From an uncultured Oscillospiraceae bacterium (GTDB lineage Bacteria; Bacillota; Clostridia; Oscillospirales; Oscillospiraceae), in NCBI GenBank assembly GCA_947626585.1, contig CANQSU010000001.1, positions 11,768 to 75,767 of the forward strand: a stretch of DNA of 64,000 nt. Direction: 5' to 3'. A model generated the notes under the pieces. It saw only the letters and a list, made by a program, of their open reading frames with translations, searched no databases and was not told the DNA's origin. This document shows, piece after piece, positions 13,509-49,290 of the stretch; positions within the stretch are counted from its first letter, which is position 1; every line of letters starts with the position of its first letter. The position numbers were made by a program, and so were the translations under genes.

Positions 13509-14036
13509 TTACTTTTCCGTGAGTTCGTAGTAACAGATCCTGCCGTCCCGTTTTTGGAACACGATCCTGTAACGGCGCTTCCACTGGCGGATCTCACGCA
13601 TGCAGTCAGAGACCGTTCCCCGGTACAAATATGGGTTGGAGTGGTCCGTGAACAGGAAGTGCATCATCGTCTGCTCCCGGTTGTCAAAGTAAGCCGTGAG
13701 CTTGCGGGGCAGGCCGTCGGCGGCCGCCTCGGCGATCGCGCCGGCCCAGTCCTGGTCGAACACCAGCGTGTCGAACGGGAGGTACGTCCCGGCGGGCAAG
13801 GGGTCCCACGGCGCGAAGTCGTCGTTGGTGAGTCCGTAGCCGCCGGACGGGACGACGCCGACCGGCAGGCCGTAGCTCCAGGCCTCCCGGGCGTCCGATA
13901 ATTTGACGCGGCGCACCCGGCCGTTCAGCACGTCCATATTGAGCCTGTGGTCGTTGAATTTCTGGCGCACGAGGCTGTTTTCGGGCTTCACGGCCGCCGT
14001 GTTCTTGGCCGCGTCGCGGTTTTCATAGTCATACAT
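13509..14036 (-). CDS. hypothetical protein
   Basis: Track ORF with protein-like composition. It overlaps the upstream gene end by 8 nt. Confidence 0.55.
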   Translation of the reverse strand: MYDYENRDAAKNTAAVKPENSLVRQKFNDHRLNMDVLNGRVRRVKLSDAREAWSYGLPVGVVPSGGYGLTNDDFAPWDPLPAGTYLPFDTLVFDQDWAGAIAEAAADGLPRKLTAYFDNREQTMMHFLFTDHSNPYLYRGTVSDCMREIRQWKRRYRIVFQKRDGRICYYELTEK

Positions 14037-14808
14037 GGCTTTGTTCTCCTATCTGGTATCCTTCCGGGCGCATCCGGTCGACGATCATCCGGATCAGGCT
14101 CCGGTGGCACAGGCTCTCGTCGTAGCAGGTACACAGGACCGCAATGGGCTTGGTGCGCGATTCACGTTCCAGCTGCCGGAGGGTTTTGAGCGGTTCGTCC
14201 TGCAGCATCTCCTGCAGGAATCTTGGCGCGAAAACCGTGTCGAACTTCTGTTTGTCCCATGTCCCGTTGGCCTTTTCCCGGCGGAACCAGAAGAACAGGT
14301 CTTTCGACGGGGAAAGTTCCGGGACGAGCCTGATGTTGCCGAAGGTGTCACGGATGTCCTTCGGGGCCGAGCGCATGCAGATCCAGGCCTCGGCGTATTT
14401 GGCCAGGGCGTCCTTCTCTTTGTAATAATTACCCGCGTAGACGCCGGGCGGCAGCAAGTTCATGCCGGCCAGCATCTCCTTTGTGACGACAAGGCCGGGG
14501 ATGGACTTTGACTCGAAATATTGCGCGTGCTTTTCGTTGAAATACCGGTCAAAGTCCATCCGCTGGCGGCAGGCGCGGAAGGCGCGCATGAGGGCCGCGT
14601 GCGTCTGTTCCCGGTCCGGGCCGAACAGTACGTAGTCCTCGCACATGTCCTCGGCCTTCGGGGCGGTGAAATAGGCGTAACGCGCCTTTTTCGCGGTACA
14701 TGGGCTGGAACGCTGGAAGTCAAGATATGCTTTTGCGAACGCCTGGAGCGAGTCCGTCGGGAATTCAGCCTCCTGTTCCGGCGTCAGCGTTATCTGGGGA
14801 AGGGGCAT
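14029..14808 (-). CDS. protein with C-terminal DUF488-like domain
   Basis: C-terminal LVPELSPSKDLFFWFRR...WDKQKFDTVFAPRFLQEM...PIAVLCTCYDESLCHRSLI resembles the DUF488 pattern (LaPS..L...w..F...Y..el ... LlC.c....CHR). Confidence 0.55.
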   Translation of the reverse strand: MPLPQITLTPEQEAEFPTDSLQAFAKAYLDFQRSSPCTAKKARYAYFTAPKAEDMCEDYVLFGPDREQTHAALMRAFRACRQRMDFDRYFNEKHAQYFESKSIPGLVVTKEMLAGMNLLPPGVYAGNYYKEKDALAKYAEAWICMRSAPKDIRDTFGNIRLVPELSPSKDLFFWFRREKANGTWDKQKFDTVFAPRFLQEMLQDEPLKTLRQLERESRTKPIAVLCTCYDESLCHRSLIRMIVDRMRPEGYQIGEQSHV

Positions 14809-23498: not shown

Positions 23499-24503
23499 TC
23501 AGGGCTGGGACGCGCGGTAGGCCTCGAAGTCCTTGAGCAGCTTCTCGCGGGTGCAGAACACGCACTCGGTGAACCGGGCACGGGTCAGCGCCACATAGGC
23601 GATCCGCTTGTTCTCATCGGACGAGGAGTAGGTGTTGCGTCCCGCCTCGGTGTTGATGAAGCAGGCGACATGGTCGTACTCCAGGCCCTTGACGCCGTGC
23701 ACGGTGCAGACCACGATGTCTGCGGACTGCTCCTTGAGCTTGGCGTTCTTGGCGTCCATGACCCGCTGGAGCAGGGTGTTCTTCTCGGTCTGCATGTCCA
23801 GCAGGGACAGCTGGAGCCGGCGGATTTCCTGGTCGCGCTTGTTGGGGTCGTTGAGGGCCGCCACGATCTTCGGGCCGTCGGCCATCTGCTCGGCCAGCCA
23901 GTCCAGGGTGATCTTGTTCACCGTCGGGCCGTTCTGGTTGTACCGGTTGCCGCCGCGGGCCGCAGCATTGATGCGGATGTTCTCGTCATGGACGGCGCGC
24001 TCGAACTCGCCCCAGTCCTTCACGGGGTTCGGGAGGAACTTGGGCAGGTTCTGGCCGATGGCAGACAGGATCACGATGTCGTTCCGGCGCTGGGACGTGA
24101 TGTTCTGGACGTTGTACTGGGACCCGTAGCGGGTGTGCAGGTAGTCGTAGAGCTTCAGGACGTCCTGCCCGGAGCGGGCGATGACGGCGATGCTCTGGCC
24201 GTGGCCGAGGCGGAGCTCCAGCCAGTCATCCAGGATCTTCATCGTGTCGGGATCCGTGACTTTGTCGTAGGTGTTCATGGTCACGGTGGCGTCCACCGCC
24301 TGCTTGGTGATCTGCATGACCTGGTTGGCCCGCAGGGTGGTCTTATGGGTGGACATGGTGCTGGACATCAGGTTCGCCACGTCCAGGATGATCTGGGTGG
24401 AACGGTGGTTGATGCTGAGGTCGAAGGTGTTGAACAGCTTGGTCAGGTTATTCAGGATGCGGGGGTCCGCGTCCCGGAATTCATACAACGTCTGGGCACA
24501 ATC
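23499..24503 (-). CDS. UvrD/PcrA-like SF1 helicase, exon 2
   Basis: In-frame extension of track ORF 23499..24488 to the predicted 3' splice site. Remainder of motif III DCAQTLYEFRDADP, motif IV INHRST, VCTVHGVKGLEYDHV, AYVALTRAR. Confidence 0.8.
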   Translation of the reverse strand, partial: DCAQTLYEFRDADPRILNNLTKLFNTFDLSINHRSTQIILDVANLMSSTMSTHKTTLRANQVMQITKQAVDATVTMNTYDKVTDPDTMKILDDWLELRLGHGQSIAVIARSGQDVLKLYDYLHTRYGSQYNVQNITSQRRNDIVILSAIGQNLPKFLPNPVKDWGEFERAVHDENIRINAAARGGNRYNQNGPTVNKITLDWLAEQMADGPKIVAALNDPNKRDQEIRRLQLSLLDMQTEKNTLLQRVMDAKNAKLKEQSADIVVCTVHGVKGLEYDHVACFINTEAGRNTYSSSDENKRIAYVALTRARFTECVFCTREKLLKDFEAYRASQP

Positions 24504-25210
24504 CGTTTTGACGCTTGTCTGGAGAAGAACTGTATGAATTTCTCATGTTTTGTATCGAGATAAACAGAAGCGTTTTTGTACAGGTAATCGTACAGGAGTT
24601 TGATGTCAGCTTTTTTACCGTACCGGAGAGATGACGTTTTGGGCGACTTTTTGTACCCTTTCATCGCCACGGTTGGCGTCGTTCCAGCTTCATGTGACAA
24701 CAGGTCTTTGAATTCCCGCATGAGTTTTTTGTCGCCAGTGAGCGACCATTCCTGACGCTGGATGTCGGATCTGGCTGTTTTCTGGACATATACGGACAGG
24801 CACCCGTCTCCGTCAAAATACCCTCTCACAAAGTGGTTCATCAGGTTTTTTCGGATTTTCGGAATGTGTGTTCGTATGCTTTTTGGCCCATATCCGAGTT
24901 TTTGCAGCGCTTCGCATAATGGACGGCAGTTGATGTCCAACTGGGCGACCGTGTGCCCGCTTTCATGGTACACTGGAACGATTTCATTGTCGGCAGATAT
25001 GGCTTCGCGAAACCGTTCGAGATGTTCGCGCTCATCCCATTTTTGGGTGACGCGAATGCGGTTCGGTCCGCTGGCACGTTTTGCCGTTTTGCTGATACTG
25101 CCGTCGGCCCAGAGGAACCCAAGCCAATAGGCTTTTTCCTGTGTGTCGATCTTGTCAAAGTAGTGCTCGTTGATGCTGTGTGTTCTGTTTATCTGCGTTG
25201 AGGTTTGCAT
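24452..25210 (-). CDS. LAGLIDADG homing endonuclease (intron-encoded)
   Basis: Track ORF 24452..25288 trimmed to MQTSTQ behind GGAGGAAAG. Two LAGLIDADG motifs, YWLGFLWADGSI and FVRGYFDGDGCL. The last ~17 codons overrun the predicted 3' splice site in another frame. Confidence 0.88.
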   Translation of the reverse strand: MQTSTQINRTHSINEHYFDKIDTQEKAYWLGFLWADGSISKTAKRASGPNRIRVTQKWDEREHLERFREAISADNEIVPVYHESGHTVAQLDINCRPLCEALQKLGYGPKSIRTHIPKIRKNLMNHFVRGYFDGDGCLSVYVQKTARSDIQRQEWSLTGDKKLMREFKDLLSHEAGTTPTVAMKGYKKSPKTSSLRYGKKADIKLLYDYLYKNASVYLDTKHEKFIQFFSRQASKRIVPRRCMNSGTRTPAS

Positions 25211-25676
25211 GACTTTCCTCCGTTCTCCATGTTGCTGACTATACCATCTTGTATGTCTTATTTTACCGAAAAATATCGGTTTTGTCAAGACCTACAAGCC
25301 CTTCGTTTTGCTTTGACAGGCTGACCCAGGCCTAATCTCAGCCTGGTGCTGACCCGATCATGCTTTCGGGCGCTACTCTACTTGCTTCGCGGCGGATTTT
25401 CATCCGTCCTTATTTTCAATCCTGCCGGGTTTCCGGCTCTTATGGATTTATAGCTTTCGACAGTCGATGAACCTTGTTCCGTCGTCTTTACGTTACGGCA
25501 CCTGGCTGCGTTTTCGTGATTGCCGCCGCTTTTTCCGGGCTTTTACCGTCCCCATGGCGTTATCCATGGTGCTGCCTGTTCTGTTTCCAGAACAGCGCGG
25601 TGCCGGGTGCGTTTTACATGCTCTCACATGTCGGTTTCCCGCAGTTAGTAGGGTTTAAGGTGGGCAATTATGCCTT
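24504..25676 (-). mobile_element. group I intron interrupting the UvrD-like helicase gene
   Basis: Helicase motif III is split between the two ORFs. The 5' exon end GUGGGU can pair with intron GCCCAC (25660-25665), giving a U-G pair at the splice site. The intron ends in G. About 400 nt of ORF-free sequence is rich in GAAA-capped hairpins. A homing endonuclease gene lies inside. Confidence 0.72.
25260..25288 (-). promoter_or_regulatory. promoter candidate inside the intron, upstream of the homing endonuclease ORF
   Basis: Minus strand reads TTGACA, a 17-nt spacer, then TAAAAT. Confidence 0.5.
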
Positions 25677-27320
25677 ACCCACGCAATAGATACTGATGTC
25701 GTTCAACATTGCCATTTTTAACATCGTCAGAAACTCCAAGCGGTTGGAGTCCTGGCTCTCGTCAATGACGATGTGCTCGATGTTGGGCTTCAGGACGGAC
25801 AGCTGGGTGTGGAACACGATGGGGTCCAGTTCCAGCGACGTGCAGTGCAGCATCTTCAGGATGCTCAGCAGGTTTGCCGCCTCAGGGTTGAGGCCGGTGT
25901 CCAGCATGTTGAGCAGCTGGGGCTGGCACGTATCGATGTTGTCGCAGTAGTTGACGAACTGCTGCAGGGCCTTGACGGTGCTGGTTTGCAGGATGTTCGC
26001 GTTCACCAGGTCGTCCATGCGGATCTTGAGCTTCTGCACAAAATCCGAATGGGCCACGATGTCCACGCGGGTGCCGCTGCCGTCGTCCAGGATCACATTG
26101 ACAAACGAATGGGTGAACTCGGCGATGGTGCTGGACTTGCAGTCCCGGAAGTTCTTTTTGATGTGCCCCGCCGCGGCCTTGGTGAAGCTCAGCACGAAGG
26201 TCTGCTTCATGTCGCAGCCGTTCTCCTCCATGAAGGCCAGACGGTGCATGATACAGGAGGACTTCCCGGTGCCGGCGCCGGCCGCCACGATGGTGATGCG
26301 GGAGGGCGATTCGATGGCCGCGATCTGCTCGGTGGTCAGGGTGATGGCCTTGGTGGTGTACTTTTTGCCCACGAGCTCCGGGATCTGGGCCGTCATGGCG
26401 CCCTGCATGTTGCTCAGGGTGTCGGCCAGGGACAGGGACATATTGGCATTCTTGAGCTGGGTGGCCTCGTCGCGGGTCCGGGCGTTGATGACGTCGATGA
26501 CGTCCGTCTGGTACAGGGCGAAGGGCAGGTTGACCAGGTTCAGGATCCGGTTGGCGTAGGCCAGCACCGGATAGCCGGCCGCGGACGCGGCCTGCAGGGC
26601 CTTCTTCAGGTCGCCCTGGGTCTTGATCAGCGCCAGTTCGGACATGATCAGGTCGTACATGCTGCGGGCGTTGTCCGCCGCCGCCAGGTTGGCGGAGTCG
26701 TCGGTCTTCACCGAGTAGCCGTTTTTGACCATGAAGGCGTTGATCTTGTTAAACGCGTTCGTGTACATGTCCAGGATCGGGTCCTTGGGACGCGGGCCGT
26801 TCACGTACAGGCCGTCGAACTTCTCGATCCAGCTGTTGGTGGGCATGCCCTCCTCGGCGACGATCAGGGTGTAATAGCCAAGGACGTAGTTGGTTGCGGC
26901 CTTGTAGACGTAGATCCTGTTCAGGAACAGGCGGGACCGGTAGGTCACGACCTGGCCGTCGGACGGGCGCTCGAACGTGGCAAAATGGTCCGTCATGGCG
27001 CAGAGCGGGGCAGGGACGCCGTTCTGGGCCGTCGCGTAGCCGGAGCAGAGCGAGATGTCCTGCCAGAGGGTGGTGTAGTTCCTGAGGTCGTCATGGACGT
27101 GGTGGGCGCGGTTCTCGCACTCGTACCGGTCGGCCATCAGGATGGAAACGGCGTTCTGGGACACGACGTCGCTGCCCCCGGCGAGGAGCGTCGAGCGCAA
27201 CAGCCCCTGGTTCACGCCGTTCCCGGTCAAAACAGAGTTATAGTCCTTGGGGCTGTACTGGGGCCCCGCGGCGGCCTGCCTGGCAACGGCAGTACCGGCA
27301 TCTTCCAAGATGATCGGCAT
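25677..27320 (-). CDS. UvrD/PcrA-like SF1 helicase, exon 1 (with a long N-terminal extension)
   Basis: Walker A AAGAGTGKSS and motif II VIDESQD. The track ORF 25668..27320 ends ...ISIYCVGKA*, reading 2 codons plus the stop into the intron. Confidence 0.8.
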
Positions 27321-29181: not shown

Positions 29182-30864
29182 TCAGATCTTGGACAAAATC
29201 ACGGAACGCGCCACGGGCGCCATGTCGGCGGGGCTGGCGATGCGGAGCTTGTCCTCGTCAGGGATGCCGAGGTCGTCCGGGATGGACGCGTATTTCGAGT
29301 GCTCGGCCTTCATGGACGCCACCATGCCGCGGACCATGCGTTCCGCGCCGTCGACCATTTCGGATGCGGACAGGGCGCGGATGGAGATCTTCGTCTGGGA
29401 GACCGGGTCACGGCGTGCGGCGAAGCCGATGGAACGGGACTGGTCGGAATCCTCGGAAACACAGAAAACGATGCATTTGCCGATGTCCACGGTCCGGTTG
29501 TCGGCGTATTTGATCAGTCCCGTCCCCATGGCGGACTCGAAAAAGTCGCGGACGACCGGGTGGCCCTTGTCCATGTTGTCGAGGATGATGATCTTCCTGG
29601 GGTTGGATTCCACGATGTCGAAGGGCATCTCCTGGCGGGAGTCGGAGCCGACGTAACCCATGGGCGAGCCGATAATTCTGTTCAGGCTGGGGGCGTCGGA
29701 ATAGTCCGCCAGGTCCAGGTACACCGGCTGCTCGTCGATGAGGGCGGCAGCCTGCTGGACCAGGGTGGTGCGGCCGGACTTGGGGTCGCCTTTGATATCA
29801 ATGCGGAACGGCTTGCCGGTGGGGAACAGGGCGTCGAAACGGACGTAGTCGCTGACCGTCTCATAGAGGTGGTCGATCACGTCGTCCCGGAAAAAGATCT
29901 TATCCTTTACAGCGTCGAAATCCGCGGGGACCGTGAAGCCCTGGCCCTTATTGTAGTTCTCCACGTGGGCCGCGTTGATGACCAGGGGCGTCGACTGCAT
30001 GTGCTGCTTGAGGGCGTCGTCTGTGCAGGTCATGATGTTGGCGTTACGCTGCAGCAGGGTGCTGGCGCAGACCTGGTCCAACAGCGTGATGGCATTGTCG
30101 GGACGGTGGCAGGTGATGGTCTTGGACTTTTCCGCCGCCTGGACGACCTTCATGGCCAGTCCGTTGGCAAAGCCGACGCCGTAGTGGGACGCCAGGGCCG
30201 GCATGGTGACCGTTTCGATGATGTCACGGGTCTGGTCCATGGAGAGCTCGCAGACCTGGACCTTGTTGAACCTCCGGTTGAAGGCGGGGTCTTCTAATAA
30301 AGACTTGGACTCTTGCAGGGTCGTGGCGCCGATCATCTTGATGCCGCCGCGGGCCATGGCAGGCTTGAGCATCTGGGAGACGCTGTCGTAGCCATGGCCG
30401 CCGCAGAGCTGGTGGATCTCGTCGATGAACAGGATGACTTTGTTGGACTCGCAGTACTCGACCACGGAGCGGACCTTCTCTTCGAGCTGGCCGCGGAAGC
30501 TGGTGCCGGCCATGAGGCTGGACAGGGGCAGCTCGTAGACGGTATAGTCGTTGAGCATGGACGTGTACGGGCTTTTCATGGCAATGAGCCGGGCGATCTC
30601 CTCGACAATGGCGGTCTTACCGGTGCCGGGGGCGCCCACAAGGAGCGAGCAGGACTTTTTGGACATCATCAGCTGGGAGACGACCTGGAAAACCTCGTGG
30701 TCGCGGTGTTTGACGGGCATGGCCTTGGCAAACTTCTTGTTGTAGTCGATGAGGAGCTCGGTGACGCCGGAGGCGTCCTGGGCCGCCTGGGCAGGCGTTA
30801 CGGCACCCGGAGGCGGCATGGAACCGGGAGCCTGGTTCTGATTATTTCTGAAGTCGAAAGGCAT
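29182..30864 (-). CDS. Clp/Hsp100-family AAA+ ATPase (ClpA/ClpB/ClpC-like, second module degenerate)
   Basis: LLVGAPGTGKTAIVEEIA (Walker A), VILFIDEIHQL (Walker B) and IGATTLQESKSLLEDPAFNRRF (Clp D1 signature). The second half has GDPKSGRTT and IIILDNMDK. Confidence 0.85.
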   Translation of the reverse strand: MPFDFRNNQNQAPGSMPPPGAVTPAQAAQDASGVTELLIDYNKKFAKAMPVKHRDHEVFQVVSQLMMSKKSCSLLVGAPGTGKTAIVEEIARLIAMKSPYTSMLNDYTVYELPLSSLMAGTSFRGQLEEKVRSVVEYCESNKVILFIDEIHQLCGGHGYDSVSQMLKPAMARGGIKMIGATTLQESKSLLEDPAFNRRFNKVQVCELSMDQTRDIIETVTMPALASHYGVGFANGLAMKVVQAAEKSKTITCHRPDNAITLLDQVCASTLLQRNANIMTCTDDALKQHMQSTPLVINAAHVENYNKGQGFTVPADFDAVKDKIFFRDDVIDHLYETVSDYVRFDALFPTGKPFRIDIKGDPKSGRTTLVQQAAALIDEQPVYLDLADYSDAPSLNRIIGSPMGYVGSDSRQEMPFDIVESNPRKIIILDNMDKGHPVVRDFFESAMGTGLIKYADNRTVDIGKCIVFCVSEDSDQSRSIGFAARRDPVSQTKISIRALSASEMVDGAERMVRGMVASMKAEHSKYASIPDDLGIPDEDKLRIASPADMAPVARSVILSKI

Positions 30865-31049
30865 GGCAATATTCCTCCTATGAGGCCCGCATTGTCATAC
30901 GAGCCTGTGATTTTGTGCGGCGCGTTCGTGCATGACGCATGGTTTTACCTTGATTCATAGCGAAAATTCGGAAAGGGCGGAGAGAAAGAACAACATTGGG
31001 GAACTTGGACTGGGATCGAGGATTTCATGATTGGTGACCATCCCGGGTT

Positions 31050-32340
31050 CCAGCGACGGATTTGGGAAGCAGGTCCATCGATGCGGCCCGCGGAGCTTGA
31101 GTCCGGAGCTTGGTTTCGAACCTGTCGTCCTGAGGAGGATGATCTCGACATCAACGATGACACTGAAGAGAGGATCCTGGAACGAGTTCGACGCCAAAGG
31201 ACCCTGGACTGCTGTAGGCCTCATCGGACGACAGCTGTATCGCGAAGCCACCGCGTGGTTCTGATGATCATCAGGATCTTCGCAGCGCTACGCGTTCATC
31301 CAGGAGCCTGCCTGGTAAGCATGTCTCATGAGATCCGGATCCACAGCATCTGGCAGCCTGAGCTTCTCCAGGTAACCAGTGTCGTACGGCAGGGTACCCT
31401 GCCGGCATGATCATGATCATGATCGTCGACCAGCTGGCATCGTTGGAATCTCGATCGCGATGTCGACTGCAAGTCCCTTCAGTGCACTATACTCCTCAGC
31501 TCTGCTGGAGACGCGTCTTCTTGCAGGTACCTTAGGTATCCGAAGAGCAACTGGAGTGCGTGCCCGCACGGAATGCCGTCTTCATCACAGCGTTCGCCAG
31601 GCCGGCTTCCGCGGATCCACGCATTGCTGCACCCGGAGGTCGCTGACTGATCAGTCGGATTTAAGCCTGCCAGGCACGAGTACTGCAGACCGAGTCTGGC
31701 GAGCCCTCAGGTCACCGGTATCCTGCTGCCTTCAGCTCAGCTCACTCGGGGCCTTGAGCCACGAGACGTCTTCAACGTTGCCGACCACCGTCACTTCAGT
31801 GGGCACCTAGGTGCTTGACATGCATGTCATTTGGTTCGCAATAATCCATCCCAGGCGTTATTCGTACGTTGTTCGTAATAATTACGAACATGTTCGTCAC
31901 CCGGGTTGCCGGACGAGCATGCCTTCGCACTGCGGATCCGCACCAGCTGGTAATCCGTCCTTACGGCCGTGATCACAACCAGTGATCTCCGGGATATCCC
32001 GCGGCTGTCACACTCAGTGCCGCGCGCAGGTAGATCTGTGACTGGGTCCTTAGCGACCTGACCGGACGTCAGATTCCATGATCATGGATTCTTCGTCCAC
32101 ACCATGGTTTCGAGATGAGCTCGCCATCGGCGCCTTGAGGCACCAGTGGCCATACCTGTACAGGTCAGACGCCTACGTCCCCAGATCCACGTGACTATCT
32201 GTCACCCAGAGACCGTTTGGAGTCTAATTATCCCGAATCCTGAAGGGGAGGCTGGAATGCGCATCCCAGGTATCCGGATCCGGGCCTGACCCCCGTCTTA
32301 TTTCGCTTCCTTCCTCCGGTCCCGCAGGGATCCGGAGGAA
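31050..32340. other. ORF-poor tract densely packed with perfect spacer-less palindromes (10-19 bp)
   Basis: Direct reading finds at least 14 perfect palindromes of 10 bp or longer between 31261 and 32283 (listed in the findings), plus many 6-8 bp ones. The track has no minus-strand ORF of 60 aa or longer between 31252 and 32634. Confidence 0.8.
31861..31900. promoter_or_regulatory. operator-like cluster of GTTCGT half-sites
   Basis: TTCGTACGTTGTTCGTAATAATTACGAACATGTTCGTCAC contains four TTCGTA/GTTCGT-type half-sites, including the 19-bp dyad GTTCGTAAT-A-ATTACGAAC (31871-31889). Confidence 0.4.
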
Positions 32341-32606
32341 GACGCACGCCTGCGCCGCACTCCCTGCGCCGGGAATGCGGTGTTATCATTGTTTTTTTTT
32401 CCGGCAGTCCGGCCCTGTCTCGTGGCTATACTGCAGGGCAAGTACAACGGTAAACGCAAAGCGGAACGCGGCCGAGGTGGCGCTTTTCATCGCCAATCCC
32501 CAATGCCGGCCCGGAATTGGTCCATTCAATCGTTTTCCGAAGTTAACGCGTCCGCCCCCCTCTATCCTATGGGGCGGACGCGTGCGGCCGTCTTGCCGGT
32601 TTCTTT

Positions 32607-32628
32607 CCAGCCGAGACGCTGGTTTTTT
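32607..32628 (+). terminator. plus-strand rho-independent terminator facing the reverse transcriptase operon
   Basis: CCAGC-cgagac-GCTGG followed by TTTTTT on the plus strand. The minus-strand reading has no U-run after the stem. Confidence 0.5.
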
Positions 32629-32634
32629 ATGCCG

Positions 32635-33270
32635 TCAGTTCAGACCGGGAACGGCGTTCAGCCGCTGCGTGTACAGCGCATGGCAGAGCCGGAAGAGCCG
32701 GTCGTCCACGGTGTGGTCCATGTCGGCCACGACCTCCATGGCACATTTCTTGAGCAGCGAGAGGGACTGTTCCGGGGTGGAGCATTTCGGCATGAGGAAG
32801 CCCTCGTATTTGATCCCGTAGGACAGGGTCACGAAGGCGCCGGTGTTCATCCAGCAGGACTTGTAGGTGTCCGGGCAGGAATACCTGTACTTGGCCTCGA
32901 ACGCCTTCACGTCCCGGCGGACGTTCTCAAGGGTCGGCTTATTTGACTTCCGGGGCGACGCCCAGAGGGTGAAACGGGCGCATAGCCGGTCCGCGTCACG
33001 GGCCAGGACCTTCTCATCCACCCCGGTGCCGGACATGGACATGACGATCTCGTCGACCATGTCCGTGAAGGCACGCTTGGGCCAGAAGAGGGAGTTCTCG
33101 GCCACGTGGTTCAGGGCGTCGTTCAGGTACTGTTTGCGCGTGCTGGAAAACCAGTAACGGCAGTAGCAGTCCAGCGCGGCGTCCGGGTCCTTGTGCAGGG
33201 CCAGGTCCATGGAACGGATGAAGTTGTCCCGGGTGGCCCTGCCGTTCACTTGTTTCCCAAGGTATTTCAT
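32635..33270 (-). CDS. hypothetical protein co-transcribed with the reverse transcriptase
   Basis: Track ORF 32635..33327 trimmed to MKYLGKQ behind AAAGGAG. It starts 19 nt after the RT stop. No family recognised. Confidence 0.58.
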   Translation of the reverse strand: MKYLGKQVNGRATRDNFIRSMDLALHKDPDAALDCYCRYWFSSTRKQYLNDALNHVAENSLFWPKRAFTDMVDEIVMSMSGTGVDEKVLARDADRLCARFTLWASPRKSNKPTLENVRRDVKAFEAKYRYSCPDTYKSCWMNTGAFVTLSYGIKYEGFLMPKCSTPEQSLSLLKKCAMEVVADMDHTVDDRLFRLCHALYTQRLNAVPGLN

Positions 33271-33289
33271 GTTTGGCAATATCTCCTTT

Positions 33290-34597
33290 CTACATGGCGT
33301 CCATGCCCATGGCACGGCTTCCGGCAAGCATCAGATTCGCATACGTGGTGTACGCCGCCGGCGCGTTCCGGTACAGGGACCTCATATAGGTAAGCGGCGT
33401 ATAGCCGTCGATGTGCGGGCGCTTTTTACGGTTTTCCGTGACGTTGCGGCCGCGCCCGCGCTGGATCACGCCGCCGTTCCCAGACTTGTTATATCCCAGG
33501 CCGCCCAGTTTCGTGCGGCCGGTGTCGCAGGCGCGCAGGCAGTCCAGGATGTAGGCATCCATCTGCTTCAGGTCCTGGACCGAAGTCAGGACCGGCAGGA
33601 TCCCTTCGGCGTAGCCGTAGCCGGATTCGCCCTTCTCGTAAAGCCACGAGGCGATCCGCGGCATGGCCTTTTCCGAGCCGGCGGGGTGCGCGGCGTCGAT
33701 GGTCCGGTCCCGGACGGCCTTCTGGAAGTTCCCGAGGCGTTTCTTTGACAGGGATATTTCCCCGTCACGCAGGGAAAAGCCGAGGAAGGTGAACCATTTG
33801 TCGTTGGTGAGCCGCTCGATCTTCTTCTGGTTCATGGACAGGCCCATGTCTTTCAGCATTTCAGAGCATGCCTCGAACGCGGCGTCGGCATGGGGTCCCA
33901 GGATCAGGATGTCGTCACTGTAGCGCCAGAAGCCAACGTCCAGCCTTGACATGGCGTCGTCCACCGGGTACAGGACGGAGTCCGCCAGGAAGGACGCCAC
34001 GGCACAGCCCTGGCGCAGGCTGGTGTACTTCTCGAACATGTGCCCGTCCAGCGCCTGGAGCCGGTCGTCGTGGTAATAAATATCTAACAGTGTCAGCAAT
34101 GCCGACGGGCCGAGGCGCGAGGCGACGGCTTCGAATACCTGTTCGATGTATTTCCGGTCGACCGTGTCGAAATACTTGGACAGGTCGATCTTCCAGCCGA
34201 TGTGGTCGAGACTTTGGCAGCTGGCCTTGATATATCTTGCCACTTCCCGGGCAACCTTGCCGCAGCCGACGCCTGATTTATAGGACATGCAGGACGGGTG
34301 GACCATGTCGGGACAGTAGCGGAACAGGGCCTCGTTGATCGCCGCGAACAGGATCCGGTCCTCGGCGGCGTTGACGTAGACGGTCCGCATGGTGCCGTCG
34401 TCCTTGGGGACCTGGGCCTCGTGGGGCGGCTTGATGGATTTCTTCCCGTCCTGGATCCTGGATTTCAGGGCGTCCCGATAATTCGGGTCGGTGAAGTCCT
34501 CCAAAATTTTTGTCTTGATGTGTTTTTCGGCGCCGCCGGCGATGGCTTTTTCCCAGATCGCATCATCGTCGAACAGCCTGTCAAGAAACGCGTCCAT
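33290..34597 (-). CDS. reverse transcriptase (RNA-directed DNA polymerase), class unassigned
   Basis: RT motifs VPKDDGTMRTVYV, AEDRILFAAI, KIDLSKYFDTVD, LRQGCAVASFLAD, RYSDDILILG, GLSMNQKKIE and FTFLGFSL. AAAGGAGG RBS. Confidence 0.88.
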   Translation of the reverse strand: MDAFLDRLFDDDAIWEKAIAGGAEKHIKTKILEDFTDPNYRDALKSRIQDGKKSIKPPHEAQVPKDDGTMRTVYVNAAEDRILFAAINEALFRYCPDMVHPSCMSYKSGVGCGKVAREVARYIKASCQSLDHIGWKIDLSKYFDTVDRKYIEQVFEAVASRLGPSALLTLLDIYYHDDRLQALDGHMFEKYTSLRQGCAVASFLADSVLYPVDDAMSRLDVGFWRYSDDILILGPHADAAFEACSEMLKDMGLSMNQKKIERLTNDKWFTFLGFSLRDGEISLSKKRLGNFQKAVRDRTIDAAHPAGSEKAMPRIASWLYEKGESGYGYAEGILPVLTSVQDLKQMDAYILDCLRACDTGRTKLGGLGYNKSGNGGVIQRGRGRNVTENRKKRPHIDGYTPLTYMRSLYRNAPAAYTTYANLMLAGSRAMGMDAM

Positions 34598-34614: not shown

Positions 34615-34848
34615 TTAAATTTTACGGATCTCGTCTATCCCGTACAGGATCTCCCGCAGGGCATTGTTGTTGAGCGATACGAAGACCGAACCGGTGTCGG
34701 CGACAAATTTCACGGTTCCACGGTCACCAGGCTTCAGGTCCGTGAGCGGGTCAGCCGTTGAGACCAGTTCGATACGGGTCCCGGGCGGGTATTCGGCACG
34801 GAGCCTGTCAACGGTTTCCCTGGTTGGATATACGCACTGGCCGCCCAT
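34615..34848 (-). CDS. DUF4314-like small protein
   Basis: Track ORF 34615..34995 trimmed to MGGQCVYPTRE. RLRAEYPPGTRIELVSTADP...LKPGDRGTVKFVADTGSVFVSLNN...LYGIDEIRKI matches my recollection of the DUF4314 pattern. Confidence 0.6.
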   Translation of the reverse strand: MGGQCVYPTRETVDRLRAEYPPGTRIELVSTADPLTDLKPGDRGTVKFVADTGSVFVSLNNNALREILYGIDEIRKI

Positions 34849-34849
34849 G

Positions 34850-35245
34850 TCACGAAAGCCCCCATGTTTTCCTGAAATCCGCGACGTCCTCCGGGGCGAA
34901 CTCCGCGAGCCGGTCCAGGTCGAACCGGAAGACCGGGTACATGCCCATGCCGGAGAACGCGGTCTTTCCCGTGTCCTCGGCCAGGCGGTTGTCACGGATG
35001 AACTTCAGGACTTGGCGACGCATGTCGCCCGTAATGGCAGACTCGCCGGGCTCCATGGGGAATTCCGGGATGTTGACCGTCAGGTCGGCAACGGAGCCGG
35101 GACAGCCGTCCCCGTCATCACCGATGAGCCCGACGAACAGGCGGCCGTTGTCGCTGTATTTGGCGACCTCGATGCCGACCTTTTCGATGCGGCCGTTATA
35201 TCCGAGGTCGAAATCAAGGTTGTATTCCTGCTTTTCTTCTGCCAT
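34850..35245 (-). CDS. DUF4313-like protein
   Basis: GIEVAKYSDNGRLFVGLIGDDG...ADLTVNIPE...VLKFIRDNRLAEDTGKTAFSGMGMYPVFRF matches my recollection of the DUF4313 pattern seen in Firmicutes conjugative elements. Confidence 0.55.
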   Translation of the reverse strand: MAEEKQEYNLDFDLGYNGRIEKVGIEVAKYSDNGRLFVGLIGDDGDGCPGSVADLTVNIPEFPMEPGESAITGDMRRQVLKFIRDNRLAEDTGKTAFSGMGMYPVFRFDLDRLAEFAPEDVADFRKTWGLS

Positions 35246-35316: not shown

Positions 35317-36900
35317 TCAGAACAGCACGCGCCATGGGTTGGGCAGCCTGTTGGCGAACTTCTCGGCATAAGACACCGAGGTGTCCTTGGTCGGGATGTA
35401 GTACAGGTTCTCCGGGTGCTTGATGTACCGGGGGACGTCCACATAGAAGTCCGAGATCAGGATGGACAGCTGGCGGCGGTTCTTTTTGGTCGCGTTGATA
35501 TAGTTCCAGACCTGGTCGATGGTGGTGCCGCCGGAGAGCTTGGGGATCTTCTCGATGTCCCGCTGGATCTGCGCCTGGGACCGGTTGCGGCAGCGGACGA
35601 CGGCCTCCTGGGAAATGTCCGTGGTGAAGCTGTTGAAGTAGATGTCGCAGTTGAGCTTCTTGGCGATGTCGATGATCATGGCCACGGAATCCTCGTAGTC
35701 CTTCTGGGAGATGGACCCGGAGGTGTCGACGTACAGGTGGATGTCCGGGTAGTACCCCAGGTCCATGCTGACGCCGGGCAGGTCGGGGTTCATGGGTTCG
35801 CGCCGGTTCGGCCTCTGGAACGTGTCGAAGTTATGATAGGTCGGGTTCTTGGAAACGTCGACGTTCTTCATCTTCTTTTCGATCTTCATGATCTTCTTCC
35901 GGACGCGGGCCATGTTGATGTTCTTGATGGCGAACTTGCCGGTGGAAGCCGAGAGCGACGACTTTGCCAGGACGTTGTTCAGCTGGTTCTGCAGGACGTT
36001 CATCTTCTGCATGGCCTTGTTGACGGTGCCGAGGCTGGCCATCTTGGCGAAGCTCAGGATGCGGGACTTGTCCAGCGCGGCCAGCTTGCCGACGTCGTTC
36101 TTCGCGGCCAGGAGCTCGGAGCTGGTGGCGCGGGAGAGCTTGCGGGCGTTGAAGGCCACGACCATGCTGGGCAGCAGGGACTCGATGGTCCGTGTCGGGA
36201 GGATCCGGTCCGCCCAGGCCTTGGTCAGCGCCGAGGTGATGATGCGCGCCTCGGAGTCCGGGTCGCAGCTTGCGTCCATGAGCTTGTAGTCGCTGCGCAG
36301 GATCAGGCCGTCGAAGACCTTGTTCTGCAGGTTGAAGTCCGTCGGGATCTCCTGCTTGCCGGCGGCCTTCAATAACGGGTTCACCATGGCCCGGAAGTTC
36401 TGGGCGTCCTGGTCGTCGTCCATGAGGACGAAGATGGCGTTGACGTTGTTGTAAAACGCGCCCAGGTTGGCCAGCAGCGCCGAGCGGTCCTGCTGGGACT
36501 TTGTCTGGTCGTAGAGCTTTGCCGCGTCGGACACGTCCGAGACGACGTAGACGACCTTGGCGCTGGGCTCGGGCAGGTGGTTCGCGCGCAGCATCTGGGA
36601 CAGGTAGACCGTGTCGATCTTGCCGTTGGCGTAGCCGGCCAGGCAGTTGGTGAAGATGGTGTCCAGGTCGCCCTGGGCTTGGCGGTCCACCAGGTTGGTG
36701 ATGATGGCGTTGGCGAAGATCTGCTTGCACAGGTCCGTCTCGTCCTGGGACAGGGCTTGGCAGGCGATGTCGTCGAACATCTGGTCCAGGATCTTGTCAA
36801 GCTCGTCGTTGATGTCCGTGCCGGAGTCCTGCTGGTATAGCTTCAGGGGCTGCAGGCTGTTGACCTGCAGTTTCCCCACGATCGTTTTCAGATCAGGCAT
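35317..36900 (-). CDS. von Willebrand factor A (VWA) domain protein
   Basis: C-terminal MIDAS motif HLYVDTSGSIS, then KLSGGTTI and SILISDF. Long helical N-terminal region. Confidence 0.72.
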   Translation of the reverse strand: MPDLKTIVGKLQVNSLQPLKLYQQDSGTDINDELDKILDQMFDDIACQALSQDETDLCKQIFANAIITNLVDRQAQGDLDTIFTNCLAGYANGKIDTVYLSQMLRANHLPEPSAKVVYVVSDVSDAAKLYDQTKSQQDRSALLANLGAFYNNVNAIFVLMDDDQDAQNFRAMVNPLLKAAGKQEIPTDFNLQNKVFDGLILRSDYKLMDASCDPDSEARIITSALTKAWADRILPTRTIESLLPSMVVAFNARKLSRATSSELLAAKNDVGKLAALDKSRILSFAKMASLGTVNKAMQKMNVLQNQLNNVLAKSSLSASTGKFAIKNINMARVRKKIMKIEKKMKNVDVSKNPTYHNFDTFQRPNRREPMNPDLPGVSMDLGYYPDIHLYVDTSGSISQKDYEDSVAMIIDIAKKLNCDIYFNSFTTDISQEAVVRCRNRSQAQIQRDIEKIPKLSGGTTIDQVWNYINATKKNRRQLSILISDFYVDVPRYIKHPENLYYIPTKDTSVSYAEKFANRLPNPWRVLF

Positions 36901-36937: not shown

Positions 36938-38107
36938 TCATGCGCCATAGATCATCTTGAAGCTCTCCGCGATGGCCGTGCCGGAATTCACGATCTCCGC
37001 ATAGGCGTCGCGGTTGTACTCGCCGGAGTTGATGATGGTGGTCAGCTTCTGCTGGCCGCCGTCCACCAGCATGTTCTTGCCGTAGGTATGGACCAGCTCC
37101 CGCATATAGTCCGTGTAGTTGGCTGTGGTGTCGTAGACCATGTACAGGATGGCGGCGGAACGCTCCTGGTCGGTCAGGCCGGCGCAGATGCCCTGGATGT
37201 CGGTGAGGCGGCTGACGTTGATGAACTGGTCAATGACGGCGGGACGGGCGGGCGCCTCGATCTTGCTGGGGCTGACCAGCTTGAACTTGTTGGCCATGAT
37301 GGAAGTCACGACGGCCTCGGTGAACAGGGTGTCGCCGGTGAAGCCGGAGACGTACTCCTTCAAATCCTCCTCGCCCATGTTCATGACCATCTGGCCGTTG
37401 TCCAGCAGGGCGCGGTTGAGGCCCATGATGGTACGGGGCGTGGCGATCTGCTGGAAGTCGTTCTCATCCTCGGAGAAGATCTCCTCGTTGTTCTCGTCCA
37501 CGACGGCGTTGTGCTCTTGGTAGATCAGGTTGGGCTGGGTCTTCAGGAGCTCCTCGATGACGGGATGGATCTTGCCGAGGCCCAGGAACACGGTGGCGTC
37601 GGGCTGGCAGTGGCGGAGGATGAAACGAGTGGTGGAGGCCATATCCAGGGAAATCACGTTGCCGTCGTCGTTGCCGGCGGCGATCAGCTTGATGTTCTCG
37701 GGCAGGCGCTCGGTGCCGATCTTGCGGGCGGTGATGAAGGTCAGCAGGGCTGAAGTCACGGCGGCGGTGGTACGGTTGACCTCATCCAGGAACAGGACGA
37801 CGGTCTTGTTGGGGAACTCCTCGGCCTCCTCGATGGCCTCTTTTACGACGGCATGGGGGAAGAACACCTGCTTGGCCTGGGTGTTGCCCTTGTCGTCGGT
37901 ATAGGTCACGGTGCGGCAGCCGGTCAGGTCGGCCTGCATGGCGATCTGGTTGCAGAGGAGCTCATGGAAGCCCCAGCCGTTCTTCTCGCAGATGGACTTC
38001 ACGATGCTGGACTTGCCGATGCCGGGGGCGCCCAGCAGGAAGGGTATCAGGTTCCCGTTCTTCAGGTCAGACTCGATGATCTTGGTACCGGTAGCATTGA
38101 GTAACAT
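36938..38107 (-). CDS. MoxR/AAA_5-type AAA+ ATPase
   Basis: Walker A FLLGAPGIGKSS, Walker B VVLFLDEVNR and LIAAGNDDG. Adjacent to a VWA partner, as is typical for MoxR systems. Confidence 0.8.
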   Translation of the reverse strand: MLLNATGTKIIESDLKNGNLIPFLLGAPGIGKSSIVKSICEKNGWGFHELLCNQIAMQADLTGCRTVTYTDDKGNTQAKQVFFPHAVVKEAIEEAEEFPNKTVVLFLDEVNRTTAAVTSALLTFITARKIGTERLPENIKLIAAGNDDGNVISLDMASTTRFILRHCQPDATVFLGLGKIHPVIEELLKTQPNLIYQEHNAVVDENNEEIFSEDENDFQQIATPRTIMGLNRALLDNGQMVMNMGEEDLKEYVSGFTGDTLFTEAVVTSIMANKFKLVSPSKIEAPARPAVIDQFINVSRLTDIQGICAGLTDQERSAAILYMVYDTTANYTDYMRELVHTYGKNMLVDGGQQKLTTIINSGEYNRDAYAEIVNSGTAIAESFKMIYGA

Positions 38108-42423: not shown

Positions 42424-42434
42424 TCCATAAAACC

Positions 42435-42481
42435 ATCCCCCGGTCCGCCTGGTGCACAAGACGGACCGGGGGATCTTTTTG
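42435..42481. terminator. bidirectional rho-independent terminator
   Basis: ATCCCCCGGTCCG / CGGACCGGGGGAT stem followed by CTTTTT on the plus strand. The minus-strand reading is followed by GTTTTAT. Confidence 0.7.
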
Positions 42482-42487
42482 GAGATT

Positions 42488-42648
42488 TGGGGAGCATAGG
42501 GAATCGAACCCCGTGTCAAGCGGTCACCCGCAAGCCCTTTCCGTGCGTCGCTTTCGCCTGTCACCCGCTACCCGCCTGCACCTGCAGCCTGGGGACTCGG
42601 ACCCCAACGGACGGAACGCCGGACCCTTCACCGAGAAGGTCAGCTCCC
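42488..42648 (-). ncRNA. tRNA-like structured RNA candidate 2 (about 160 nt)
   Basis: Minus-strand 5' GGGAGC pairs with 3' GCUCCC-CA. Contains a D-arm-like hairpin CCUU-CUCGGUGA-AGGG, internal hairpins with GUGA and GAAA loops, and the T-arm ACGGGGUUCGAUUCCCU. It is too long, and its anticodon arm too unclear, for a normal tRNA. Confidence 0.35.
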
Positions 42649-42716
42649 ATGTCTTTTGTATAAGATTTTGCGGTGCGCGCCCGGACGTCCGGACACACTC
42701 CGCGGTTTTCTTTCAG

Positions 42717-42748
42717 GGCTGGGCATGCGCGCCAGCGCGTGCCCAGCC
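42717..42748. repeat. hairpin copy A with conserved 14-nt loop
   Basis: GGCTGGGCA-TGCGCGCCAGCGCG-TGCCCAGCC. Confidence 0.65.
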
Positions 42749-42890
42749 GCCGCCCAAAGGGCCAAACCGTAGGCACGTTTGCGCCCGCAAGCCGCCGTGG
42801 GACGCACCCCAACGGTGCCGCGGCTGGCAGCCGGACCGTGCCTGTTGGCTTTCCGTCCGGCCGTGCGCGGTGGTCCCGCGGTTATTTTTC

Positions 42891-42926
42891 GAGCCCCGGC
42901 ATGCGCGCCAGCGTGTGCCGGGGCTC
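42891..42926. repeat. hairpin copy B with conserved 14-nt loop
   Basis: GAGCCCCGGCA-TGCGCGCCAGCGTG-TGCCGGGGCTC. The loop and left flank match copy A. The stem sequence differs but stays complementary. Confidence 0.65.
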
Positions 42927-43004
42927 CTTCCGGCAATAAAAAGTCCGGCGGGGGCAGCCCAAAAACAGGCCTCCGCATAGGCAAACTCCCCCGGTGGCCG
43001 TTTT

Positions 43005-43470
43005 GAGAACGTTACATTTTTTCGATGTTGCAAGTTGTTCGTTTTTGTGTCAAAATCGCAAAAAGTGCAAGAATCATTACAGTTTTTCTTGCGGCCGAGT
43101 CGAAAATGGTACTGCATTTTTTTCGTGTTTTTCGAAAGCCTGAAAATGGAAACGTTACAAGAAAGTGTAGAAATTTCTACAGTTTTTGGCATCCATGTTG
43201 CTAACTCCGTTACAGAGCGTTACACAAAAAATCGCAAAAACTGCAAAAATCTTTGCATAAATTTTTTTGTAACGTTTGTAACGTTAAAATTAGTATTATA
43301 TACGCGCGTGAGAAAACGCCATACTAAGGGTTTGAAAAATGAACGTTACAAACGTTACAAAAAAATTTCTGCTATAATTCTTACATTTTTTCGAAAATTT
43401 TTGTAACAGCGTGTAACGTGAGAACGTTACAAACTTGAAAAGTGCAAGAATTGTTACATTTTCTTGTAAC
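43005..43470. repeat. AT-rich iteron field (AACGTTAC / GTTACA repeats); probable replication origin or centromere
   Basis: At least 13 exact GTTACA/TGTAAC hexamers, mostly as (G/A)AACGTTACA and several in tandem (43268-43282, 43344-43359, 43402-43431). Also longer direct repeats AAAAGTGCAAGAAT..TTACA (43061 and 43438) and AAAATCGCAAAAA(G/C)TGCAA (43052 and 43227), and the palindrome GTAGAAATTTCTAC. Confidence 0.8.
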
Positions 43471-43626
43471 GTTCTCAAACGGCGTGTTTGAAAACCCTCG
43501 AAAAAATGCAATGCGTGTATTTGAGGCCGTGCGGGACGCGCTGTTTCGCGGACTCCCCACGTGGCTTTGTACCGGCGGCCGGATGCGGTTCCTGCCGCTC
43601 CCAGAGTGTGAAAGCGCGAAACACCC

Positions 43627-47997: not shown

Positions 47998-49254
47998 ATG
48001 ATCAATGCCGGCATTGACGTCGGGAACGGGTATGTGAAGGCCCTGGTCAAGAACCCCGACATGGACAAGAAGGCGCAGGCGGTCGACATCCCCAGCGCCA
48101 CGTCCACGATCTCTTCCCGGGAGGCCAAGATCGAGGCCAAGGACGAGATCAAGATCAAGAACTTTTTCAACGACATCTACAACCTGATGGAGGTGTCCTT
48201 CGACTCCCCGATGATCACGGAGACGGACCACGCCTACATCGGCCTGCGGGCCGTGCGGTCCGCCAACCCGACGGAGGAGTTCAACCTGCGGGAGGGGCAC
48301 CGTTCCAAGTCCGAGACGGAGCTGTCCGCGAAGCTGATGCTGTCTGTGTTGGCCGGCAAGGCCCTGTCGGACTACTGGGCCAAGAACAAGAAGCTGCCCG
48401 GGGAGGGTGAGACGATCCCCGCCAAGGTGCGGCTGGCGTTCTCCCTGCCGATCTCCGAGTACGTCGAGAAGCGCGACACCGCCATCCAGAACTACACGTC
48501 TTCGCCGCACATCGTGCACATCCACAATTTCGACCGGGTGGTCACGGTAAAAGTTGACGTCGTGTCAGCCCGTGTGATGCCGGAGGGCGCCAGCGCCCAG
48601 TTCGCCATCGCCGCGAAGGGCGAGAAGTTCATCGAGGCGATGATCAAGGACATGTACAGCAATGGGCTGTCGCTGCCGGAGGGGATCACCGCCGCCGATA
48701 TCGCAAGTGCCCAGGGCATCATCGGGATCGACATCGGCGAGGGCACGGTGAACTTCCCGATCTACCAGGACCTGATGTTCAACGCCGACACGTCCCAGAC
48801 GCTGAATAAGGGCTACGGGCACGTCCTGGACGCCGCCGTGGCCAATTTGGAGTCGAAAGGTCAGCCGTATCATAACAGGAAGCAGCTGGCGGACGCCCTG
48901 GAGAACGCCAAGGTGAAGCCCCTGCTGCGCGCCCGTGCGAGGCCCGCGTTCGAGGCGGTCAACGACGAGATCGGGATCTTCGTCAAGGACGTGGCCAAGA
49001 AGTGCCGCGACGTGCTGAACATCGCAGGCGGCCTGGCCGAGGTCATCTACGTGTACGGCGGCGGGGCGACGCCTGTAAAGGACAAGCTGTACCCGGCCCT
49101 GATCGACGCGGTGAAGACCGTGTTCGGCGAGGACGGCGCGAGCTTCCCGATCCTGTACCTGGATTCCCGTTACTCCAGGTGGCTGAACCGCGACGGCCTG
49201 TACCTGCTGTGCGACGATGGGCCGAGGAGCGCGGAAGACCTGACCAACGTGTGA
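47998..49254 (+). CDS. ParM/Alp-family actin-like segregation ATPase
   Basis: Actin-fold motifs GIDVGNGYVK (phosphate 1), GIDIGEGTVNF (phosphate 2) and VYVYGGGA (adenosine). Confidence 0.85.
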   Translation: MINAGIDVGNGYVKALVKNPDMDKKAQAVDIPSATSTISSREAKIEAKDEIKIKNFFNDIYNLMEVSFDSPMITETDHAYIGLRAVRSANPTEEFNLREGHRSKSETELSAKLMLSVLAGKALSDYWAKNKKLPGEGETIPAKVRLAFSLPISEYVEKRDTAIQNYTSSPHIVHIHNFDRVVTVKVDVVSARVMPEGASAQFAIAAKGEKFIEAMIKDMYSNGLSLPEGITAADIASAQGIIGIDIGEGTVNFPIYQDLMFNADTSQTLNKGYGHVLDAAVANLESKGQPYHNRKQLADALENAKVKPLLRARARPAFEAVNDEIGIFVKDVAKKCRDVLNIAGGLAEVIYVYGGGATPVKDKLYPALIDAVKTVFGEDGASFPILYLDSRYSRWLNRDGLYLLCDDGPRSAEDLTNV

Positions 49255-49261
49255 TTTGGCG

Positions 49262-49290
49262 TTGACAGGACGCGCCTGACGGGCTATAAT
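49262..49290 (+). promoter_or_regulatory. perfect consensus promoter for the adhesin gene
   Basis: TTGACA (49262-49267), a 17-nt spacer, then TATAAT (49285-49290). Confidence 0.7.

Follow-up and report, generated by a model that had tools for sequence, protein, structure and literature searches.

A UG27-family reverse transcriptase locus with a probable minimal bORF relative, a displaced sORF-like domain and a structured non-coding tract on a plasmid-like element of gut Clostridia

Results

The locus described here encodes a reverse transcriptase (RT) and lies in a 64,000-nt stretch of DNA from an uncultured Oscillospiraceae bacterium (GenBank assembly GCA_947626585.1, contig CANQSU010000001.1, positions 11,768 to 75,767 of the forward strand), referred to as the window. 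The RT gene is located on the minus strand at 33290..34597, is present in the list of open reading frames (ORFs) and specifies a protein of 435 amino acids (aa). An earlier note on this DNA had described the ORF as carrying TSLRQGCAVASFLAD, the catalytic box RYSDDILILG and GGLGYNKSGNGGVIQRGRGRN, and all three were found in it. The tight flanks that it reported were exact. The upstream DUF4314 gene ends at 34615, 17 nt before the RT start, and 19 nt separate the RT stop from a downstream ORF of 211 aa (ATG at 33270, end at 32635), a length also given by independent gene calls in relatives. The genes upstream of the RT, all on the minus strand, are a MoxR-like AAA gene (36938-38107), a VWA-like gene (35317-36900), a DUF4313 gene (34850-35245) and the DUF4314 gene (34615-34848, with bounds according to the gene calls of relatives). 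Downstream, the gene for the 211-aa protein (32635..33270, minus strand) is followed by a non-coding tract of 1770 nt (30865-32634) that extends to a ClpB-like double-AAA gene (29182-30864, minus strand). No ORF of coding-like composition was found in the tract, which is the sole long non-coding stretch adjoining the RT and contains many palindromes and inverted repeats.

The amino acid sequence of the RT was compared with the PADLOC profiles and matched RT_UG27 over nearly the full length of both (E 8.5e-138, 458 bits, protein residues 2-421, profile positions 3-418 of 420). The runner-up families were UG26 (112 bits), UG17 (72 bits), Drt9 (71 bits) and Drt2 (35 bits). Pfam RVT_1 was matched at residues 63-275 (E 3.3e-18). 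The catalytic box is intact, its residues Y226, S227, D228 and D229 are invariant across 32 RTs of the clade, and the C-terminal Gly/Arg motif GGLGY...RGxGRN is conserved and common to canonical UG27 RTs. The protein shares 43% identity with its Bacteroides phage BS-TP1 counterpart. There were 2777 homologues at E<=1e-20; their clusters comprise one at 91% identity, about 48 at 48-61%, and many at 42-47%, the last being of the canonical type. Judged by these profile and motif matches, the RT is a full-length member of UG27, a family that has already been described. UG27 is a class 2 UG/Abi RT reported by Mestre et al. in 2022, found mainly in predicted gut phages of Bacteroidetes and Firmicutes and accompanied by two functionally unassigned protein clusters and, in the adjoining intergenic region, a putative structured non-coding RNA (ncRNA) (PMC9226505).

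The earlier note had separated this RT from those of group II introns, retrons and diversity-generating retroelements (DGRs), and the searches agreed. Rfam gave no match in the window at the gathering threshold and none at E<=5 in 30700-32800; neither a group II intron nor a retron family, and thus no msr/msd, was found. The absence of intron RNA from the Rfam results and flanking gaps of merely 17 and 19 nt argue against a group II intron, and the best PADLOC matches, all to UG groups, argue against a retron. No DGR template/variable repeat pair was present within +-10 kb of the RT, where the only direct repeats of at least 40 nt were an in-gene tandem repeat, P-loop motifs and a 44-nt intergenic pair. 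The two identities that the note had then offered, an unclassified RT class or a divergent group-II-like RT, are both contradicted by the end-to-end UG27 match, which stands far above every other RT family (458 bits against 112 for the next best). A new class, or a group-II-like, retron or DGR enzyme recruited by a mobile element, could be argued from a weak similarity to plasmid group II intron RTs (24% identity over 66% of the protein) and from the N- and C-terminal extensions of the RT. Considering the profile match, the Gly/Arg motif present also in canonical UG27 RTs, and the missing intron, retron or other RNA families and template/variable repeats, we regard this explanation as extremely improbable.

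Fourteen distinct loci of the near clade were fetched, on contigs of 78-280 kb, one of them binned in an Oscillospiraceae metagenome-assembled genome and another one in a Muribaculaceae genome of the same kind. All 14 share the order 244-aa protein, ~320-aa protein, ~260-aa protein, MoxR-like (389 aa), VWA (527 aa), RT (~430 aa), ~210-aa protein, 1.8-2.3 kb without a conserved ORF, ClpB-like (~562 aa), UvrD. Co-occurrence of RT homologues with the neighbouring ORF and a long non-coding tract had been set beforehand as a check, and the RT, the 211-aa ORF and a tract of 1.8-2.3 kb were found together in 14 of 14 loci at RT identities down to 49%. The operon proposed in the earlier note (MoxR, VWA, DUF4313, DUF4314, RT and a gene of unknown function) has the order described, but DUF4313 and DUF4314 do not belong to the unit. 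They are confined to the window and its three closest relatives and are missing between VWA and RT in 10 of the 14 loci (L004, L006, L026, L028, L030, L031 and L037-L040; the upstream flank of L034 was left out), which identifies them as passengers in a variable slot. This slot, the VWA-RT gap, holds DUF4313 and DUF4314 (34615-35245) in the window subgroup and an unrelated 154-aa ORF in L038 (4532-4996), and is empty of called ORFs in the other loci in which the upstream genes were read. The stretch from the MoxR-like gene to the tract contained no terminator-like site on the minus strand, a result compatible with read-through transcription.

Canonical UG27 systems have recently been characterized in a preprint (Li et al., September 2026, bioRxiv 10.64898/2026.09.22.753630). 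Their loci encode the RT and a small (sORF) and a large (bORF) accessory protein, and their ncRNA is an array of sequence-diverse units of about 135-167 nt in which a central hairpin is bracketed by UUYA and AUC-N-UANAG. Single-stranded DNA (ssDNA) of 50-100 nt is produced from the central hairpins in an RT-dependent manner that needs YSDD (YSAA mutants served as controls) and both accessory genes; the biological role of this complementary DNA (cDNA) is unknown (bioRxiv 10.64898/2026.09.22.753630). Bacteroides phage BS-TP1 (L001) and the IMG/VR loci L022 and L023 were used as canonical comparison loci. As positive controls for the array searches they agreed with the published description. The BS-TP1 array (L001, 7222-8570) has eight units spaced 141-180 nt; in seven of them a long hairpin (65-96 nt) is clear, and AUCGA-N6-UANAG lies 0-7 nt downstream of it. 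L023 (9213-10565) has eight units of the form hairpin-CAUCGUAAA-N4-UGAAG, and L022 (9240-11044) has nine CAUCGUAAA-N4-UGAAG sites, six with a clear hairpin. The motif as printed in the preprint, AUC-N7-UANAG, had no match even in the canonical phage. A spacing of N8 recovers the eight units in BS-TP1 and the spacing is N9 in L022 and L023; therefore, it is either clade-specific or was printed one N short.

The neighbour proteins of 26 loci were clustered into families. Canonical loci encode an sORF family of 98-209 aa (f1; 328 aa in L007) and a bORF family of 282-396 aa (f2). Neither was present among the clustered neighbours of the near clade, which has a ~210-aa family (f5) instead; this family, to which the 211-aa protein belongs, is encoded immediately downstream of the RT in all 14 clade loci. 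Alignment of the f5 and bORF profiles by hhalign gave a probability of 90.5-94% and E values of 1e-6 to 1e-7, and the bORF hidden Markov model (HMM) scored 30 bits on the 211-aa ORF of the window. The aligned part comprises the C-terminal 70-90 residues of f5 and the C-terminal region of the ~300-390-aa bORF alignment, with the f5 segment KYRYxCPDTYxSCWMNTGAYVTLSYGIKYEG pairing with the bORF FKGAGAYYTLxNxIMFH region. The N-terminal half of f5 has no significant match. The 211-aa protein is thus a probable homologue of bORF in its C-terminal part only. Its AlphaFold2 model is all-helical and confident, with a predicted local distance difference test score (pLDDT) of 89.8, and has no fold relative in PDB or BFVD. 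The family is rare (about 48 clusters among 5.8 billion proteins) and its mean column identity is 55%. DUF4313, DUF4314, MoxR, VWA, the ClpB-like AAA protein and the three upstream families were also considered as relatives of sORF or bORF, and no relation was found.

No sORF homologue was found among the conserved neighbours within ~5-10 kb of the RT. The sORF HMM flagged a 259-aa ORF at 14029..14808, on the same (minus) strand as the RT, with a C-terminal half that matches DUF488-N3a (E 4.7e-17). Its family aligned with sORF in hhalign over 98 columns, within the N-terminal ~100-115 aa (95.9% probability, E 5.2e-9), and the motifs S-x-P, YF-x-A, R-x2-A-x3-L and L-x-L-x-K-x-W, which are invariant in sORF, are common to both. 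The gene lies 18.5 kb from the RT, inside the 20-kb co-location limit for UG27 components used in bioRxiv 10.64898/2026.09.22.753630. In two other elements a counterpart is located at a distance of ~18 kb from the RT, flanked by the DNA polymerase and an SNF2 helicase. In one of them the RT is 89% identical; in the other it is 52% identical and the N-domain is a separate 112-aa ORF. The N-terminal domain of the 259-aa protein is, by profile comparison, likely a sORF homologue. No functional lead on DUF488 was found in the literature. All three UG27 protein types thus seem, at the level of sequence relationships, to be present on the element, rearranged and partly fused.

The part of the tract next to the 211-aa ORF is a conserved structured leader of ~400 nt (~32230..32634, minus strand) with a P1 hairpin (32546-32583), an invariant CAYUGGGGA motif (32497-32505), and a three-helix core with (A)AGCGRAAA-YAAGA after it. 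The leader is near-invariant among the window, L002 and L005 (100% over ~110 nt, above the coding flanks) and can be aligned across the whole clade, including loci with RTs of 49-58% identity. All 14 loci have a P1-type hairpin of 10-15 bp, checked sequence by sequence, a short distance past the f5 stop; its sequences differ and no U-run follows it. RNAalifold produced no consensus for the upstream half of the leader, where MAFFT misaligned the stems. The core was modelled as R1 (32288..32376, minus strand), with three helices and 20 base pairs. Its positions are paired in 94.6% of cells, compared with 79% in shuffles (0 of 500 shuffles reached the observed value), and 15 of the 20 pairs changed on both sides, with slid controls at or below 52%; covariation in the leader is thus strong. 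The R1 covariance model found a single copy in each clade locus (64-91 bits), nothing further in any tract and no match in the canonical UG27 loci. The lack of further copies in the tract indicated that the leader is not an array unit. The location of the G-U pairs on the RT strand points to an RNA transcribed in the same direction as the RT. The main hairpin of the leader is followed in several relatives by AUC-N8-(U/C)AAGA, resembling the canonical hairpin-AUC-N8-UANAG, and among the candidate templates this hairpin, with its AUC-like 3′ junction, looks most like a canonical one. A 53-aa ORF within the leader (32228-32389) was rejected as a gene; it is not coding, and its ATG is missing in L002.

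The middle of the tract (~31005..32229, minus strand) is a hairpin-rich, fast-evolving region and a candidate template. It is ~78% identical, with insertions and deletions, between loci with 91%-identical RTs, and has no recognisable similarity between distant loci at the DNA or protein level. This lack of similarity indicated that the middle is non-coding and that the ORFs called inside the tracts of relatives, which share no protein similarity and were rejected as genes, are spurious. Palindromes centred on GATC (GGATCC, TGATCA and GATCATGATC) are enriched in it. GGATCC was observed 31 times in five tracts against 2.6 expected, TGATCA is enriched 6-fold, and the density of GATC is 12 per kb, compared with 6.3 per kb in the flanks. 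Either CCATGATCATGG or GATCATGATCAT recurs in 11 of 14 loci. A logo built around GGATC showed no extended motif. In low-GC relatives GGATC is rare and GATCATGATC is dominant. The consensus fold of the middle from the window, L002 and L005 reached -324.5 kcal/mol, compared with -251 to -280 in 20 column shuffles, and had 278 pairs (202+-19 in shuffles) and 68 compensatory pairs (48+-9 in shuffles). The last ~140 nt before the ClpB-like AAA gene (30865..31004, minus strand) are the only part of the distal tract kept at the nucleotide level between distant loci. They are probably the promoter or 5′ untranslated region (UTR) of that gene, and their membership in the RT system is uncertain. In the window and related loci, CTAG occurs at 0.06 per kb in coding parts and at 0.81 per kb in the non-coding tracts.

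These features of the tract have to be weighed against the possibility that it acts as DNA. In such a case the RT would be UG27-related and the tract would be a cis-acting or regulatory region, for instance an origin of replication, a partition site, or promoter and 5′ UTR sequence belonging to the ClpB-like AAA gene, with the GATC palindromes as protein-binding sites. The location of the tract within a block of replication and repair genes (UDG, UvrD, primase and DNA polymerase), the enrichment of GATC-centred palindromes, the conservation of the last ~140 nt before the AAA gene, and the missing periodicity of canonical units are all in line with this possibility. However, the compensatory changes in the leader, together with G-U pairs on the RT strand only, indicate selection on an RNA. 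Moreover, the tract always follows the RT and the 211-aa ORF (14 of 14 loci), and a better origin candidate exists at 41-43.6 kb, where there is a strand switch, an AT-skew flip and a low-GC, repeat-bearing intergenic region. A purely cis-acting role of the tract is therefore considered unlikely.

Another possibility is that the locus is a decaying or domesticated UG27 remnant, which would have lost the adjacent sORF and most of bORF and would make no cDNA, with the tract as a degenerated array and the leader in another role. The adjacent sORF is indeed missing, the probable bORF homologue is truncated, the canonical unit motifs are lost, and deletion of either accessory gene abolished cDNA in canonical systems (bioRxiv 10.64898/2026.09.22.753630). 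However, decay is difficult to reconcile with the evident constraint on the RT, the 211-aa protein and the leader across loci with RT identities of 49-91%. The catalytic residues of the RT are invariant, the columns of the 211-aa family retain the mean identity given above, synteny is strict in the 14 loci, and the sORF-like domain is kept on the same elements. We consider a remnant distinctly improbable.

The genes in the rest of the window bear on the nature of the element. Replication and repair functions include a family-B-like DNA polymerase, a D5-type primase-helicase, SNF2 and UvrD helicases, UDG, a PDDEXK exonuclease and RNase H1. Other products are ClpP, FtsH-like and ClpB-like ATPases, a ParM-like actin, a sortase, a T-Q ester adhesin, a LysM protein and a topoisomerase. 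Comparison of window ORFs with PHROGs and Pfam revealed no recognisable phage structural gene. The nearest annotated relatives of the DNA polymerase are on large actinobacterial plasmids (30-34% identity, 90-98% coverage), and there was one weak phage match. The near clade was not found in IMG/VR, and no UG27 RT was found in PLSDB. The window represents 64 kb of an element of at least 180 kb, a third or less of it. The element looks like a large plasmid or phage-plasmid of roughly 140-280 kb from gut Clostridia. This suggests that UG27 also resides on plasmid-like elements, beyond phages, which would widen its known host range.

Several further features of the element were recorded. The region 47998-56283 (plus strand) encodes the ParM-like actin, the sortase and the T-Q ester adhesin, a surface protein of 1923 aa in which three T-Q ester-bond domains are present. 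This cargo is plasmid- or conjugative-element-like and not phage-like. Genes for an FtsH-like protease (1-1660), ClpP (7371-8177) and the ClpB-like double-AAA protein (29182-30864) are on the minus strand and, with the MoxR-VWA pair, make up a proteostasis load unusual for a mobile element. The RNase H1 gene (5680-6315, minus strand) has Cauli_VI and RNase_H domains, and its product could process RNA-DNA hybrids from the RT. The intergenic region 42424-43626, of ~1.2 kb, has the lowest GC of the window (0.48), is located where gene orientation and AT skew switch, and contains a 44-nt direct repeat in two copies (42700 and 42876, 176 nt apart). We regard the region as a candidate for a replication origin or for divergent control. 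The UvrD-like helicase gene (23499-27320, minus strand) is interrupted by a ~1.1-kb insert of lower GC (about 24489-25667) that separates a 550-aa N-part from a 329-aa C-part, and its counterpart in the 91%-related L002 is unbroken (882 aa). The ORF at 24452-25288 in the insert encodes a LAGLIDADG endonuclease (PF14528, E 1.7e-9), which suggests a mobile intron-like or homing-endonuclease insertion. No group I intron was found by Rfam.

Discussion

Taken together, the relationships described above make it likely, in our estimate, that the locus is a divergent UG27 system on a large plasmid-like element, in which hairpins of the tract RNA serve the RT and accessory proteins as templates for short ssDNA. 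In the pathway proposed by analogy with the characterized UG27 systems, a long minus-strand transcription unit (MoxR-like, VWA, further genes, RT and 211-aa protein) would read on into the 1.77-kb tract. The RT would act with the bORF-like 211-aa protein, and the sORF-like domain encoded 18.5 kb away would probably also take part. These proteins would reverse transcribe hairpin segments of the tract RNA, giving short single-stranded DNA hairpins. The ~400-nt leader may be a protein-binding scaffold or a founding template unit, and the fast-evolving middle may be the source of variable templates, an analogue of the diverse array. Family membership of the RT, gene order, conservation and RNA covariation are direct results of the analysis, and transcription of the tract, synthesis of cDNA, the limits of the templates and any biological role are inferred. 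The suggestion that the tract could supply the RNA template, made in the earlier note, has held up to this extent: the tract is the best candidate, and it fits the UG27 model of an adjacent ncRNA copied by the RT.

Several observations weigh against this proposal. A HMMER profile search of 1.84 billion representative proteins with f5 recovered its own small family only and no bORFs; the relationship between f5 and bORF, which is limited to the C-terminal part and is probable, rests on profile-profile scores only. The sORF-like domain is encoded 18.5 kb away and is fused to a domain of unknown function, and its role in the RT system is therefore putative. On its RT strand the tract showed neither the ~150-nt periodicity nor, also when one mismatch was allowed, the AUC...UANAG (AUC-N8-UANAG) motif, in searches that recover eight regularly spaced units in BS-TP1 and L023. 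The hairpins of the tract are shorter and less perfect than the canonical central hairpins, and its single-sequence folding z-scores (-3.0 and -2.5) are indistinct from that of an RT coding control (-2.3). In addition, the leader of the window has AGG where relatives carry AUC.

A more specific version of the proposal can be formulated. The locus would be a rewired UG27 system of giant plasmid-like elements in which the RT, a minimal bORF-like protein and the distal sORF-DUF488 fusion work on one long ncRNA, composed of a scaffold leader and hypervariable templates. The resulting ssDNA hairpins, displaying GATC/GGATCC, would serve as ligands of, or decoys for, host proteins that recognise GATC (restriction, Dam, MutH or SeqA-like), as a counter-defence or host-manipulation device. 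We offer this version as a speculation with a rather small chance of being correct.

The RT family is known already. What is new here is the variant, with a minimal bORF-like protein, a displaced and fused sORF-like domain, an RNA that has a leader and a variable part in place of a regular array, and a plasmid-like carrier. Such a variant could reveal the essential parts of UG27 systems, namely the C-terminal domain of bORF, the sORF core and the hairpin-AUC junction. It also makes a second RNA architecture available for comparison with the canonical array, and the bias of the variable region toward GATC palindromes is a clue to what the cDNA hairpins might bind.

Comparison with known systems places the locus closest to canonical UG27. 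As proposed here, it would resemble retrons in that an RT uses part of an adjacent structured ncRNA as the template for short ssDNA, with the participation of accessory proteins. It differs from them in that the window has no msr/msd match, the ~1.8-kb non-coding region is located 3′ of the RT, and the RT is best classified as UG27. The class 2 UG RTs DRT2/UG2 and DRT9/UG28 share with the window a stand-alone RT and an adjoining structured ncRNA, which is the template in those systems, with no integrase or intron RNA. They make long or concatemeric cDNA and have a role in defence (according to bioRxiv 10.64898/2026.09.22.753630), whereas UG27 is not enriched in defence islands (PMC9226505), and the scores of the window RT for Drt9 (71 bits) and Drt2 (35 bits) are far from the 458 bits for UG27. 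Unlike canonical UG27 loci, the window has a bORF counterpart cut to 211 aa with only C-terminal likeness, a sORF-like domain 18.5 kb away and fused to DUF488-N3a, and a single-copy ~400-nt leader with a variable GATC-palindrome part instead of an array of 135-170-nt hairpin-AUC...UANAG units; the element is plasmid-like in appearance and its clade is not in IMG/VR. Like those loci, it has a full-length RT of the family with YSDD and GGLGY...RGxGRN, a long hairpin-rich non-coding tract that adjoins the RT on the RT strand, an accessory protein probably related to bORF and a sORF-like domain on the same element, and it resides on a mobile element of gut bacteria.

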